This document shows positions 37,277 to 62,073 of a stretch of 64,000 nt of DNA, in pieces (within the stretch, counting starts at the first letter, position 1; each line of letters starts with the position of its first letter). Where the stretch lies: assembly GCA_963761535.1 (NCBI GenBank), contig CAVXGS010000003.1, forward strand, positions 7,048 through 71,047, in the 5' to 3' direction. The position numbers and the translations under genes were made by a program. This stretch comes from an uncultured Coriobacteriales bacterium. GTDB lineage: Bacteria > Actinomycetota > Coriobacteriia > Anaerosomatales > CAVXGS01. The notes below the pieces were generated by a model. It saw only the letters and a program-made list of their open reading frames with translations, ran no database searches and had not been told where the DNA came from.

Positions 37277-39038
37277 ATGATCGCCGGAACCATCCAGAGA
37301 ATCACGGGACCCGTCGTCGTCGCCCAAGGCGTGACCGGCGCGCGTATGTACGACATCGTGCGCGTCGGGTCGGAAGGCCTCATGGGCGAGGTCATCCGCC
37401 TTGAGGGCGACACCGCGACGATCCAGGTCTACGAGGACACCTCCGGTCTCAAGGTCGGAGAGGTCGTCGAATCCACCGAGGGTCCCCTGCTCGTGGAGCT
37501 GGGCCCCGGTCTGCTGACGTCGATCTACGACGGCGTTCAGCGCCCGCTTCCCGTGGTTGCCGCCGAGAGCGGTGACTTCATCGAGCGCGGAACGGTCGCC
37601 TCGGCGCTCGACCGCGAGAAGCTGTGGTCGTTCACGCCCACCGTCGCCGTAGGCGACGAGGTCGGAGCCGGCGACGTGCTGGGCACGATCCCCGAGGGCA
37701 AGACGATCATCCACAAGGTCATGGTCCCGCCCAGGACTGCTGGCGGAAAGATCGCCTCGATCATCTCGGCGGGCGACTACAACGTGGACACCACGGTCGC
37801 CACGCTCGAGGACGGTACCGAGATCAAGATGGCGCAGTGGTGGCCCGTCCGTGAGGGACGACCCTACATCAACAAGATGGACCCGACCACGCCGTTCACC
37901 ACCGGCATGCGCATCCTCGACACGTTCTTCCCGATCGCTCTGGGCGGCAACGCGATCATCCCGGGCGGTTTCGGAACCGGGAAGACCGTCACCCAGCAGT
38001 CGCTCGCGAAGTGGGCCGACGTCGACATCATCTGCTACATCGGCTGCGGCGAGCGCGGCAACGAGATGACCGAGGTGCTCACCGAGTTCCCGCACCTCGA
38101 AGACCCGCGCAACGACGCGCCCCTGATGGACCGCACGATTCTCGTCGCGAACACCTCAAACATGCCGGTTGCGGCGCGCGAAGCCTCCATCTACGTGGGC
38201 GCCACGCTGGCCGAGTTCTACCGCGACATGGGCTACAACGTGGCCGATGATGGCCGACTCCACGTCCCGCTGGGGCGAGGCGCTACGAGAGGTCTCCGGT
38301 CGCCTCGAGGAGATGCCGGGTGAGGAAGGCTATCCTGCGTACCTTGCGACCCGACTCGCTGCCTTCTACGAGAGAAGCGGCCGCGTGAAGCCGCTCGGCA
38401 GCGACGACGACGATCGGATCGGATCCGTCACGATGGTCGGCGCCGTGTCGCCGGCCGGCGGTGACATGTCCGAGCCGATGACGCAGAACTCCCTGCGAGT
38501 CACCGGCGCCTTCTGGGCGCTCGACACCTCGCTGGCCCACCGCCGCCACTTCCCCGCGATCAGCTGGACCAAGAGCTACACGCTGTTCCTCGGCCAGGTG
38601 CGCGGGTGGTACGAGAAGAACGTCGCCGAGGACTGGCAGGACTACCGCGACAAGGCGATGTCAGTGCTCCAGAAGGAGACCGAACTCCAAGAGATCGTGC
38701 AGCTGGTCGGTCCGGACGCGCTGCCGGAGTCCGAGAAGTTGATCCTCGAGATCGCCCGAATGCTTCGCGAGGACTTCCTCCAGCAGTTCGCGTTCGACGC
38801 AGTTGACGCCTACTGCCCGCCGGAGAAGGCGTACTGGCTGCTGCGCACGATCCAGACGCTCTCGGACGCTTCGACATCCGCGCTGAACCGCGGCGTCGCG
38901 CTCCGCGAGATCCTCGATCTCCCGATCCGGGATGAGATCGCAACACTCAAGACCACACCTCACGAGGAGGCGCTCGAGCGCATGCCCGTGATGTGCCAGG
39001 AGATAACCGAACAGATCGCTGGAATCGAGGTGTACTGA
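37277..39038 (+). pseudogene. atpA: V/A-type ATPase catalytic subunit A, interrupted by a single extra base at about 38246 (pseudogene or assembly error)
   Basis: ORF 37277..38323 (Walker [10 protein letters not shown]) runs in frame to ...GYNVA. ORF 38169..39038 continues as [33 protein letters not shown] one base later. Deleting one nt restores the conserved [12 protein letters not shown] block. Confidence 0.9.
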
Positions 39039-40708
39039 TGGCGAAGGACTCCACCGCTGTGGCGGGCGCGCCGAGCCACTCGCTGCTCTCCACCGACTAC
39101 CGGACCATCTCCTACGTCACCGGCCCGCTGGTGTTCGTCAACGACGTTCACGGCGTGGCCTACAACGAGATCGTCACGCTCAGGCTGCCGGACAACTCGA
39201 TCCGCTCCGGCCAGGTCCTCGAGGTCGCCGATGACGTCGCCGTCATCCAGGTGTTCGAGGGCACCCGCGGTATCGACGTCGCGAAGACAGAGATCCGCTT
39301 CCTCGACGAGGTCGCCAAGATCGACGTCTCGCCCGAGCTTCTGGGCCGCATCCTGAACGGCACGGGCAAGCCGATCGACGGCGGCGCCCCGGTCATCCCC
39401 GAGAGGCGCCTCGACATCACCGGCGCGCCGATCAACCCGTACACCCGCGAGCAGCCGGCCGACTTCATCGAGACCGGCATGTCGGCCATCGACGGCCTCA
39501 ACACACTCGTGCGTGGGCAGAAGCTGCCCATCTTCTCGGGCTCGGGTCTGCCGGCCAACGAGCTCGCGGCGCAGATCATCCGTCAGGCCCGCGTCAAGTC
39601 GGGTGAGGAGTTCGCGGTCGTGTTCGGCGCGATGGGCATCACCCACCGCGAGGCGAGCTACTTCATGACCCAGTTCGAGGAGACCGGCGCGCTCGAGCGA
39701 GTCGTCTTCTTCCTGAACCTCGCCGACGACCCCACCGTCGAGCGTCTCCTGACTCCCAAGTGCGCGCTGACAGTGGCCGAGTACCTCGCGTTCGAGAAGG
39801 ACATGCAGGTGCTCGTGGTGCTCTCGGACATGACCAACTACTGCGAGGCGCTGCGCGAGGTCTCCACCGCTCGCGAGGAGGTGCCGGGACGCCGCGGCTT
39901 CCCCGGCTACATGTACACCGACCTCTCGACCATCTACGAGCGCGCCGGACGCATCAAGGGCCGTCCCGGCTCGGTGACCCAGCTACCGATCCTGTCGATG
40001 CCCGACGACGACATCACGCACCCGATCCCCGACCTCACCGGCTACATCACCGAGGGCCAGATCGTGCTCTCGCGCCAGCTGCACCGTCGCGCGGTGTTCC
40101 CGCCGATCGACGCGCTGCCGTGCCTCTCGCGCCTGATGAACCTGGGTATCGGCGAGGGCAAGACCCGCGACGACCACCGCGCGGTCGCGAACCAGCTCTA
40201 TGCTGCCTACGCCCAGGGCCGCGACCTTCGCAAGCTCGTCGCCATCGTCGGCGAGGAGGCGCTCTCCGAGGTCGACCGCAGCTACCTGCGCTTCGCCGAC
40301 GAGTTCGAGGACCGCTTCGTGGGCCAGGGTGACGAGGGGCGCTCCATCGAGGAGACGCTCGACATCGGCTGGGACATGATGGCCGGGCTCCCGATGGGCG
40401 AGCTCAAGCGTGTTCGCGACTTCATCTCGAAGTACCACCCGGATCACAAGGGCGAAGAGGCGTTCTCGGCCGCGGCCGCGGAGCCCGAGCTCGAGCCGGA
40501 GCCCGAGGCCGCGCCTGCCATGTCCGCTGAAGAGAAGGCCGCCGCGCTTGCCGCGGAAGCGGCGCTCATCGAGGGTGAAGAGGACGCGGAGAAGGGCAAG
40601 CTCGACCACTTCGTCGACGCAGTCGGCGCACAGGTCGAGGGAACCAACCGTGAGGTCGACGGCTATCGGGAGATCCAAGGCGAGCCCGGCGTGCCGGCCG
40701 ACGAGTAG
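39038..40708 (+). CDS. atpB: V/A-type ATPase subunit B with a ~90-aa Ala/Glu-rich C-terminal extension
   Basis: ORF 38993..40708, trimmed to ATG 39038 (TGATG overlap with atpA). Conserved B-subunit core up to ...FISKYHP. The extra tail is described in the findings. Confidence 0.93.
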
Positions 40709-40732
40709 CGATACGACGAGGCGAGGAGCCCG

Positions 40733-60693: not shown

Positions 60694-60746
60694 ACTGCAG
60701 CTAGCGCTGAGTTGTCTGGCTCCCGCCTCGGTCGTACTCGAGCGGG

Positions 60747-62073
60747 ATGCCGACGCTGCTTCCACGGAGGCCGGTCATCGACGCCACACCCACCATCGTG
60801 CGCCGCCTCACCGCGACCGTCCTGGCCGTCGTGCTGTTCGTCGCGCTCGTGCCTGCCTCGGCGGTCGCTGCGCCGGTCGCGGGCAACCGGCTCACGTTCC
60901 CGCCGCCCCCGCCGCCGCAGCTGGTGGTGCCCTCGGCATCGCTGCAAACGATGGACGGCCAGGTAGTGCTGTGGACCCGCCAGCCCGACGCCCAGCGCCG
61001 TGTGGCCAGCACGATCAAGATGCTGAACGCGCTCGTCGTGCGCAAGAACGCCCGGCTCGACGAGGTCGCCGTGGTCCCCGCCAAGGCGGATGCGATCTGG
61101 GACGGCAGCGTGGGGCTCGTCAAGGGCCAGAAGCTCACCGTCAACCAGCTCATGCAGCTCATGCTTGTCGCTTCGGCCAACGACGCCGCCGAGACCCTCG
61201 CGATCCACATCGGAGGCACCGAAGCCAACTACGTGCGGATGATGAATGCCGAGGCCAAGCGCATCGGCCTCAAGCGCACGCGCGCCGACGGATCCCCACG
61301 GGCTCGGCAAGCGCGAGGTTTCCACGGCGAGCGACCTCACGATCCTCGCCCGCGAGTTCATGAAGGACCCCGTGCTGCGCCGGATGGTCATGCAGCGCAC
61401 CGCGCGCGTGCCCAAGCCGGGCGGCGGCAGCCGTCCGGTGAAGTCGACGGACCTACTGCTGGGCGTGTACCCGGGCATCCAGGGCGTCAAGACCGGCTTC
61501 ACGAACCCGGCGGGCTACTGCTTCGTCTCGTCCGCGAAGCGCGGTGACGTCGAACTCGTCGGTGTCGTTCTGGGCGCGAGGTCGAATTCGGCTCGGTTCG
61601 CCGAGACCCGCAAGCTGCTCGACTGGGGGTTCAAGCACTACCGACCGCGCACCGTCGTCTCGAAGGACGAGACCGCGGGCGTCGCTCCCGTGCTCGGCGG
61701 GGTCGATTCCAGCGTCACCGTGCACCCCGCTCAGACGCTGTCGATGCTCGAGTTCGACGGCGCGCCGCTCACGAGGGTGTTCCAGATCCCGACCTCCACG
61801 CCGGCTCCGGTCGCCCTCGGCCAGCAGCTCGGTCAGGTGCTCGTGGTTCGGCGGGGGAGCGTCGTGGCGACAGTCCCGCTCGTCGCCGACCGCGTCGTCG
61901 CGGTGGCGCCGCCCGAGCCGACCCAACCGTCGGCGATCGTGAGCATCAGCAACGCCCTGCAGCGCCTCGCCGACTTCTGGGGCCGACTGACCGGTGGTGG
62001 GACGCGCGCGGCCTCGGTGGGGTCTTCCGCTCGCCGAAGCCCGGGCACCGCACGGCTGGCGCGCACCCCGTAG
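60747..62073 (+). pseudogene. D-alanyl-D-alanine carboxypeptidase (peptidase S11), disrupted by one single-base shift near 61287
   Basis: Signal/TM N-terminus. SxxK (ASTIKM) and SxN (SAND) motifs lie in ORF 60747..61547. DPHGL and the KTG motif (VKTGFT) lie in ORF 61246..62073, one frame over. Confidence 0.85.

Follow-up and report, generated by a model that had tools for sequence, protein, structure and literature searches.

In decaying genomes, such as those of Mycobacterium leprae and of recently host-restricted enterobacteria, non-essential genes are interrupted while their essential neighbours remain intact. Deletions outnumber insertions in these genomes, stop codons and larger indels occur, and a recently inactivated gene usually carries one lesion. 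Bacterial pseudogenes are deletion-biased and show mixed lesion types. In programmed frameshifting of the prfB type, a +1 advance of one nucleotide is required for the full-length protein; such sites are conserved among orthologues and consist of a defined shift codon, the in-frame stop that follows it and, upstream, a Shine-Dalgarno-like stimulator. Classical Nanopore errors are associated with homopolymers and are often deletions. The indels left in Nanopore consensus sequences, as revealed by IDEEL-type tests, are single-base events that cluster and split otherwise intact genes (PMC9262707, PMC12313526), and bins below ~40x need polishing against frameshifts (PMC9262707).

The stretch of DNA that we analysed (64 kb, referred to as the window) comes from a high-GC, Coriobacteriia-like contig, and six genes in its final 26 kb are broken by one to seven surplus single bases each. 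We followed reading frames across the whole window by Viterbi segmentation of codon usage and used homology for events close to gene starts (cytochrome 48853 and 48887, EamA 55022 and amidase ~57444), where the segments were too short. Segmentation and homology together gave 14 frame changes, all of them net +1 in the direction of translation. Segmentation called intragenic switches inside the six genes and nowhere else, at 38245 in atpA, at ~49490, 49932/49942, 50900, ~51080 and 51352 in the cytochrome gene, at ~55156 in EamA, at ~57187 in the amidase gene, at 58244 in the guaB3-like gene and at 61288 in the DD-carboxypeptidase gene, and every one was +1; neither approach detected a frame change in the first 38 kb, and no event of another sign was found within the window. 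At 11 or more of the 14 sites, gapless alignments demonstrate a 1-nt insertion and not a 2-nt deletion, since the homologues cross these junctions without gaps. Because the cytochrome site at ~49490, the EamA site at ~55160 and the amidase site at ~57444 are in loops of variable sequence or in a signal peptide, only a net +1 is demonstrated there.

These data agree with the first-pass annotation, which had placed 14 changes at these positions, all +1, and had reported none of opposite sign. It had also described the neighbouring genes (those of the first 38 kb, and groEL, guaA, ychF, tsaD and GT4) as intact, as the segmentation confirmed, and the reconstructed proteins as free of in-frame stops; none was present in the corrected frames of the six genes.

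The clustering of the sites exceeds chance. The probability that all 14 fall within the distal 26 kb of the 64-kb window is 3e-6, and that of at least 7 of 14 falling within the 3.1-kb cytochrome gene is 6e-4. Density was uneven, with no event in 38 kb, none in groEL, guaA, ychF or tsaD and seven in the cytochrome gene. More than 50 essential genes were clean, as were groEL, guaA and tsaD, and atpA was struck within an invariant catalytic motif.

The multihaem cytochrome gene (48712..51853, plus strand) falls into eight pieces, whose frames run 0, 1, 2, 0, 1, 2, 0 and 1. When corrected, it encodes a protein of ~1043 aa with a signal peptide and with seven CXXCH motifs, one CX3CH and one CX4CH. 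All nine haem motifs are kept, codon bias is strong in each piece, and residues 1-1040 are colinear with the single-frame proteins of L001-L005 and with more than 40 database proteins. Insertions 1 (48850..48858, GCCGGT[G]CAAAGC) and 2 (48884..48887, CACAA[A]GTCG) enclose an 11-residue segment, QSSCAAAECHK, that aligns to QSKCASADCHK of L001. Shift 3 (49471..49500) is placed as a net +1 to a variable loop rather than to one base. Insertion 4 (49940..49943, CATCAG[C]GGCCAC) lies immediately 3' of the haem motif CQICH and is followed by insertions 5 (50898..50901, CGCGGC[T]TCTGCC), 6 (51081..51085, AACGAT[C]TTCGCC) and 7 (51350..51353, AAGGTC[G]ACGGGT), all seven being on the plus strand. Twelve full-length homologues align without gaps at sites 1, 2, 4, 5, 6 and 7. 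The corrected protein retains 250 of 256 family-invariant columns, as compared to 250/252 to 250/268 when intact members are left out one at a time, and its identity to outgroups is 49.4% versus 50.1-50.4% for intact members; both comparisons have low power at this divergence.

The other five genes carry one or two events each. The atpA gene (37277..39038, plus strand), for the catalytic subunit A of a V/A-type ATPase (587 aa when corrected), has its extra base at 38243-38246 on the same strand (GTGGCC[G]ATGATG), within the conserved MADSTSRW region. The corrected protein matches Pfam ATP-synt_ab contiguously (1-212/213) and aligns gaplessly to A-subunits in the PDB. In the gene for an EamA-family transporter (55010..55851, plus strand, ~279 aa when corrected), insertion 1 at 55019-55023 (plus strand, ACCGCC[G]CTGATC) falls at the very start: V-L-T-A is followed in the window by a +1 step and LIATLGAALFG, and the L005 orthologue, immediately downstream of ychF, reads MLTAIIATLGAALYG. 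Shift 2, a net +1 at ~55150-55165 on the plus strand (Viterbi switch at ~55156), lies in a variable region. Once corrected, the protein aligns to the L005 orthologue over residues 1-279 in one frame, with 54% identity.

The gene for an N-acetylmuramoyl-L-alanine amidase with CWB2 repeats (55883..57507, minus strand, ~540 aa when corrected) has a net +1 shift at ~57440-57450 on the minus strand, within a CTCTCTC tract in the signal peptide. At ~57444 the upstream frame had a codon score of +3.9 versus -10.1, and it is hydrophobic and preceded by a GAGAGGG ribosome-binding site; the homologues L012-L014 have a signal peptide that aligned with that of the window. The second insertion, at ~57195-57200 on the minus strand, has the coding-strand sequence GACGCGGAC[C]CAGGCA, and homologues are gapless across the junction. 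The best match to the amidase in a metagenome scan was 45%. The gene for a guaB3-like protein of the IMPDH family (57933..59106, plus strand, 390 aa when corrected) has its extra base at 58239-58246 on the plus strand (CCCGAG[A]CAGGCG); it is single-frame in L004, L005, L006 and L010, at 83-85% identity. In the D-alanyl-D-alanine carboxypeptidase gene (Peptidase_S11 and PBP5_C; 60747..62073, plus strand) the extra base is at 61284-61289, also on the plus strand (GCCGAC[G]GATCCC). DNA alignment to L010 gave one surplus base each for guaB3 and the carboxypeptidase.

Two further candidates proved to be gene boundaries. At 62420, what might have passed for a -1 event within a Bacillus AroA-type fusion of chorismate mutase and DAHP synthase is the boundary of two genes, since all relatives (L002-L006 and L010) share this two-frame layout. 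The other, on the minus strand at 52620, is the GT4/LysE boundary. Comparison of guaA and the DAHP synthase gene with orthologues uncovered no compensated pairs of frameshifts hidden within them.

A comparison with orthologues from sister genomes, as proposed in the earlier annotation, gave single-frame genes in short-read assemblies. Every short-read relative that we retrieved (all from other species and none from the population of the window) had full-length, single-frame orthologues: the cytochrome in L001-L005, guaB3 in L004 and L005, the DD-carboxypeptidase in L004, EamA in L005 and the amidase in L012-L014. The relatives encode all six proteins intact. The best match to the cytochrome in the protein database was 62%, and the nearest relative among GTDB representatives was L010 at ~80% nucleotide identity. 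The collections searched contained no exact match to GroEL, GroES or YchF, and the genome itself was in none of them.

When the same codon-usage test was applied to other loci, ~100 kb from six short-read MAGs (L002, L004, L005 and L007-L009) yielded no frameshift candidate, and the two loci from Microflora Danica MAGs yielded 12 (L006) and 14 (L010). The rate in these two loci, ~0.5-0.6 per kb, equals that in the distal part of the window. By tblastn, L006 had five +1 events in guaA and two in the DAHP synthase gene, and L010 had nine +1 events; merely 3-4 events were of opposite sign, a ratio of about 5:1 in favour of +1. The frameshifts in both loci were clustered, lay outside homopolymers and affected genes including guaA, DAHP synthase, ychF and the cytochrome. 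Insertions in L010, such as CTCG[A]ACGAG and TCGA[G]AGTGC, were similar in character to those of the window. The Microflora Danica (MFD-LR) MAGs are Nanopore-only, assembled with Flye and one round of Medaka, and their authors warn of Nanopore-associated errors in low-coverage MAGs (PMC12313526). The window has in common with Nanopore consensus indels the absence from short-read relatives and, with L006 and L010, both the rate and the +1 bias; an insertion bias of Nanopore is shown here empirically alone, in those two loci.

We consider it very likely that the 14 extra bases are not mutations of the organism but single-base insertion errors that persisted in the consensus of a long-read metagenome assembly. 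This was also the reading preferred in the first-pass annotation, as insertion errors of long reads or low coverage, and it is supported by the intact short-read orthologues and the like frameshifts in two Nanopore-only MAGs. The contig is most likely a lightly polished, Nanopore-only assembly, a platform assigned by analogy. Residual PacBio HGAP errors in a high-GC benchmark are deletions in G/C homopolymers (PMC11649196), a profile that argues against PacBio for this contig.

The immediate context of the sites was unremarkable. As expected from the earlier annotation, which had seen no common motif, none was shared by the 14 sites and no 4-mer survived multiple testing. GATC, found no more than 3 nt away from four of the sites, was rejected since it occurs at 9 per kb (P=0.07). 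The annotation was also right that several sites lie in homopolymers of 2-3 nt; however, the remark is uninformative because random window positions share that context. The mean longest run within 3 nt on either side was 2.21 versus 2.22 at random window positions, and the longest run at any site was 3 nt. The literature on Nanopore errors stresses homopolymers, whereas these sites are at background homopolymer content, which points to low-coverage insertion noise and not to homopolymer miscalls. Unlike usual Nanopore errors, moreover, all 14 events are insertions, neither deletions nor homopolymer-associated, and the first 38 kb is error-free.

Another possibility is that the shifts are decoded, with programmed +1 ribosomal frameshifting or transcriptional slippage restoring full-length proteins. 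Every shift is +1 and, as far as sequence can indicate, the corrected proteins look fully functional; nevertheless, we regard this as having practically no chance of being correct. L006 and L010 carry their frameshifts at other positions than the window does, so no frameshift site is conserved, and none is conserved in any orthologue, the closest included. No slippery or stimulatory motif is common to the sites, and the features of prfB-type sites are all missing from the window. The shift sites have no zero-frame stop or rare codon, the upstream frame staying open for 14-905 nt past them. Slippage would require an A/T run of ~7 nt or more, while A/T runs at the sites reach 3 nt at most. The yield, compounded over seven events on a single mRNA, would also be negligible.

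The insertions could be real and recently fixed in a lineage that is losing six non-essential genes, namely those for the V-ATPase A subunit, an extracellular multihaem cytochrome, an EamA exporter, a cell-wall amidase, guaB3 and a DD-carboxypeptidase, an alternative that the first-pass annotation had left open and that we consider unlikely. Most of the affected genes have accessory or envelope roles, and ~50 translation genes, groES/EL, tsaBDE, guaA and ychF are untouched, as in decaying genomes. That the affected genes are mostly dispensable also counts against an artefact, as purifying selection on real mutations would yield the same bias. The nearest relatives are at most 62% identical (cytochrome) or ~80% at the nucleotide level (core genes), and none closer offers an intact allele from the same species. 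In addition, the loss of 6 of 256 family-invariant columns in the cytochrome is compatible with mild relaxation.

On the other hand, all 14 events share one sign and a size of 1 nt, and deletions, larger indels and in-frame stops are absent, in contrast to the spectrum of decaying genomes. The cytochrome was hit seven times, not once, and yet it keeps its haem motifs, codon bias and invariant residues like intact members. The sites are outside mutable homopolymers, and housekeeping genes of related Nanopore-only MAGs bear the identical signature, which no short-read MAG showed. Single sign, single size and seven hits in an undecayed cytochrome all disfavour recent pseudogenisation. A free-living Coriobacteriia lineage that inactivates envelope and energy genes by a strictly single-base-insertion process outside homopolymers seems to us quite improbable. 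If the insertions were real, they would represent an insertion-only decay spectrum, which is unusual for bacteria.

If the extra bases are consensus errors, their density may vary along the contig with the strain heterogeneity or the effective coverage of each region. Ribosomal operons, groEL, guaA and other highly conserved stretches would then be better supported than strain-variable accessory genes. Errors in L006 strike guaA, however, so an explanation of the clean genes by their conservation is not automatic. A polisher might instead have merged two co-existing strain alleles into adjacent bases (for instance GCC/GCG to GCCG), or differently polished segments might have been joined, and to this we assign a very slim chance. 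Error density changes sharply near 38 kb and the events are concentrated in strain-variable genes. At most of the precisely placed sites, moreover, the surplus base could pass for another third-position base of the codon before it (GCC|G, GGT|G, AAA|G, GGC|T, GTC|G, GAG|A and GAT|C). This placement is partly forced by the parsing of the junction, and because most codons here are four-fold degenerate the pattern is not separable from chance. Allele merging would in any case be a sub-mechanism of a consensus artefact and not another outcome.

Since the pattern matches long-read consensus errors and not biology, it matters solely as an annotation hazard. The surplus bases split every one of the six genes into 2-8 ORFs in the deposited sequence, just as the first-pass annotation had anticipated in stating that they would be miscalled. 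Automated annotation would return at least 20 fragment ORFs or pseudogenes instead of six intact genes, and metabolic reconstruction would mistakenly list the V-type ATPase and a large multihaem cytochrome as missing or defective. It is of some modest value to users of databases that two GTDB species representatives from this clade, both of them Nanopore MAGs, carry ~0.6 frameshifts per kb, mostly +1, with guaA among the genes affected.

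We scanned the window with a codon log-likelihood model trained on its long ORFs and a seven-state Viterbi segmentation, and a same-strand frame change with an upstream stop no more than ~15 nt from the switch was treated as an ordinary gene boundary. Most same-strand frame changes were of this kind. Intragenic switches occurred only in the genes named by the first-pass annotation (atpA and the genes for a multihaem cytochrome, EamA, an amidase, a guaB3-like protein and a DD-carboxypeptidase), and each was +1 in the direction of translation. No intragenic switch occurred in the first 38 kb, previously described as intact; the sole flag there, at 8874, was rejected as the rpsC/rplP boundary. 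Events too close to gene starts were missed by the segmentation and found by homology. The cytochrome has two of these, on either side of its first haem motif; EamA has one, four codons from its start, and the amidase has one within its signal peptide. Segmentation and homology together bore out in full the 14 net +1 frame advances proposed for six genes. Events of the opposite sign were sought throughout the window and, as had been claimed, none was found. A frame change between chorismate mutase and DAHP synthase was rejected as a candidate because it is conserved in all relatives, and one between GT4 and LysE because it is a gene boundary. The guaA and DAHP synthase genes of the window contained no compensated frameshift pairs.

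Gene-by-gene comparison with homologues demonstrates that no fewer than 11 of the 14 are 1-nt insertions. With the surplus base removed, the atpA product gave a contiguous match to Pfam ATP-synt_ab (1-212 of 213), and its junction, between RDMGYNVA and MMADSTSRW, aligned without gaps to solved A-subunits. The cytochrome gene (48712-51853, plus strand) consists of eight pieces in frames 0, 1, 2, 0, 1, 2, 0 and 1, colinear with residues 1-1035 of the protein at the homologous locus L001 and with 12 full-length homologues; no gap was seen at sites 1, 2, 4, 5, 6 and 7, and site 3 sits in a variable loop. The corrected cytochrome is matched over 97-100% of its length by more than 40 database proteins, themselves 1010-1050 aa long. 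The EamA orthologue in the short-read locus L005 is in a single frame (54% identity over residues 1-279) and begins MLTAIIATLG directly after ychF, the same placement as in the window. For the amidase, an Amidase_3 match (1-173 of 174) spans the second junction, between WNWSDAD and QAWGFAKDG, which was gapless against homologues from three short-read metagenome contigs (L012-L014, 44-45% identity) whose signal peptides also aligned. The guaB3-like and DD-carboxypeptidase genes occupy one frame each in L004, L005, L006 or L010, and each has exactly one surplus base in DNA alignment with L010. This comparison with sister-genome orthologues, suggested in the first-pass annotation, showed that, in the short-read assemblies of relatives retrieved, the cytochrome, EamA, amidase, guaB3-like and DD-carboxypeptidase genes are each read in a single frame.

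When GTDB representative genomes were searched with the corrected cytochrome as query, 11 loci were recovered. The gene was intact and in a single frame in five short-read MAGs, whereas it was itself frameshift-broken, at other positions than in the window, in L006 and L010, two MAGs of the Microflora Danica long-read catalogue. L010 shares GT4, ychF, guaB3, guaA, DD-carboxypeptidase, chorismate mutase, DAHP synthase and pcrA with the window in synteny (~80% nucleotide identity). When the same Viterbi test was run on all loci, the short-read L002, L004, L005, L007, L008 and L009 gave no frameshift candidates, while the Nanopore-only L006 and L010 gave 12 (10 of them +1) and 14 (12 of them +1). 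Verification by tblastn with intact orthologues showed five frame changes in L006 guaA (5/5 +1) and two in its DAHP synthase (both +1); in L010, nine +1 shifts were verified, with guaA and DAHP synthase among the affected genes, together with one -1 shift in ychF. Frameshift density was ~0.6 per kb in L006 and L010 and 0.54 per kb in the distal 26 kb of the window, and the L010 insertions resemble those of the window in being single bases in short non-repetitive contexts. The signature therefore tracks sequencing technology, not phylogeny. The Microflora Danica catalogue is Nanopore-only, assembled with Flye and one Medaka round, and its authors report Nanopore-associated errors in low-coverage MAGs (PMC12313526); the same group found that bins below ~40x require polishing, failing which gene calls are frameshifted (PMC9262707). 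The affected stretches, L006 1400-9800 and L010 500-22600, belong to MFD02979.bin.2.155 and MFD04716.bin.2.226, GTDB species representatives with ~0.6 frameshifts per kb, mostly +1, and estimates of gene content based on them will be too low.

The intact short-read relatives and the same signature in Nanopore-only MAGs support insertion-biased consensus errors, the explanation first favoured, and the contig was probably sequenced on a Nanopore-type long-read platform. The events are unevenly distributed, with 0 of 14 in the first 38 kb (P = 3e-6) and seven in the cytochrome (P = 6e-4). Clustering is comparable in L006, where 640 bp of guaA hold five events, so the tendency to cluster belongs to the error type itself. 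In the window, the uneven density may stem from locally reduced coverage, from strain heterogeneity in variable genes, or from a polisher merging alleles.

One alternative is that the insertions reflect genuine gene decay in the lineage. The affected genes are mostly dispensable, no event falls in the translation genes, chaperonins, tsaBDE, guaA or ychF, and no same-species genome was found in the collections searched; however, in the related long-read MAGs the same signature strikes guaA. All 14 events share the same sign and size, and neither a stop, a deletion nor a larger indel accompanies them, in agreement with the original description of the reconstructed proteins as free of decay. Natural bacterial indel spectra are biased to deletions, unlike the 14 insertions here. 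Despite seven hits, the cytochrome keeps 9/9 haem motifs and strong codon bias in each piece, and its tally of family-invariant residues, 250 of 256, resembles that of intact members. Gene decay is therefore very unlikely.

The sites share no common motif, confirming the reported lack of a slippery heptamer, and their homopolymer content is the same as at random positions; runs do not exceed 3 nt. This context argues against slippage mutations in mutable tracts and excludes the defining features of transcriptional slippage. Because the upstream frame stays open for 14-905 nt beyond each site, there is no stop-codon-type shift site, and the features that define programmed +1 frameshifting are likewise excluded. 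GATC lies near 4 of the 14 sites (P = 0.07), but the window has 576 copies of it (9.0 per kb), ~3x the number predicted from base composition, at similar density in both halves. There is no new biology in the 14 insertions, and the finding serves only as an annotation warning for this contig and related public long-read MAGs.

The first haem site of the corrected cytochrome is a CX4CH motif (residues 51-57) conserved in a ~1040-aa Coriobacteriia family, reading CAAAECH in the window and CASADCH or CAQEGCH in homologues. The other motifs are seven CXXCH and one CX3CH (CVAECH), and the C-terminal ~300 aa form a non-haem part. One homologue bears the source name chitobiase/beta-hexosaminidase C-terminal domain-containing protein. 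The gene lies between groEL and LysE in the window and between DAHP synthase and pcrA in L010.

The window has a G+C content of 65-71%, and its nearest public sequences are uncultured Coriobacteriia MAGs. It holds ribosomal-protein operons, glmM/glmS, a V/A-type ATPase operon (32.9-41.4 kb), tsaE/tsaB/rimI-tsaD and groES/groEL, after which accessory and housekeeping genes are intermixed. A full-length glmS ribozyme (26490-26645, plus strand; Rfam RF00234, 90.6 bits) lies directly upstream of glmS (26757-28586). V-ATPase subunit B (39038-40708, plus strand) carries a ~90-aa acidic Ala/Glu-rich C-terminal extension past the ATP-synt_VA_C domain, and rimI (GNAT, residues 10-112) and tsaD (residues 181-466) form one fused ORF (44642-46138, plus strand) uninterrupted by a stop codon. 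A 72-aa Cys-rich ORF (63283-63501, plus strand) with a zinc-ribbon-like CxxC...CxxC...CxxC pattern separates DAHP synthase from the pcrA-like helicase, in a stretch scored non-coding by the codon model.
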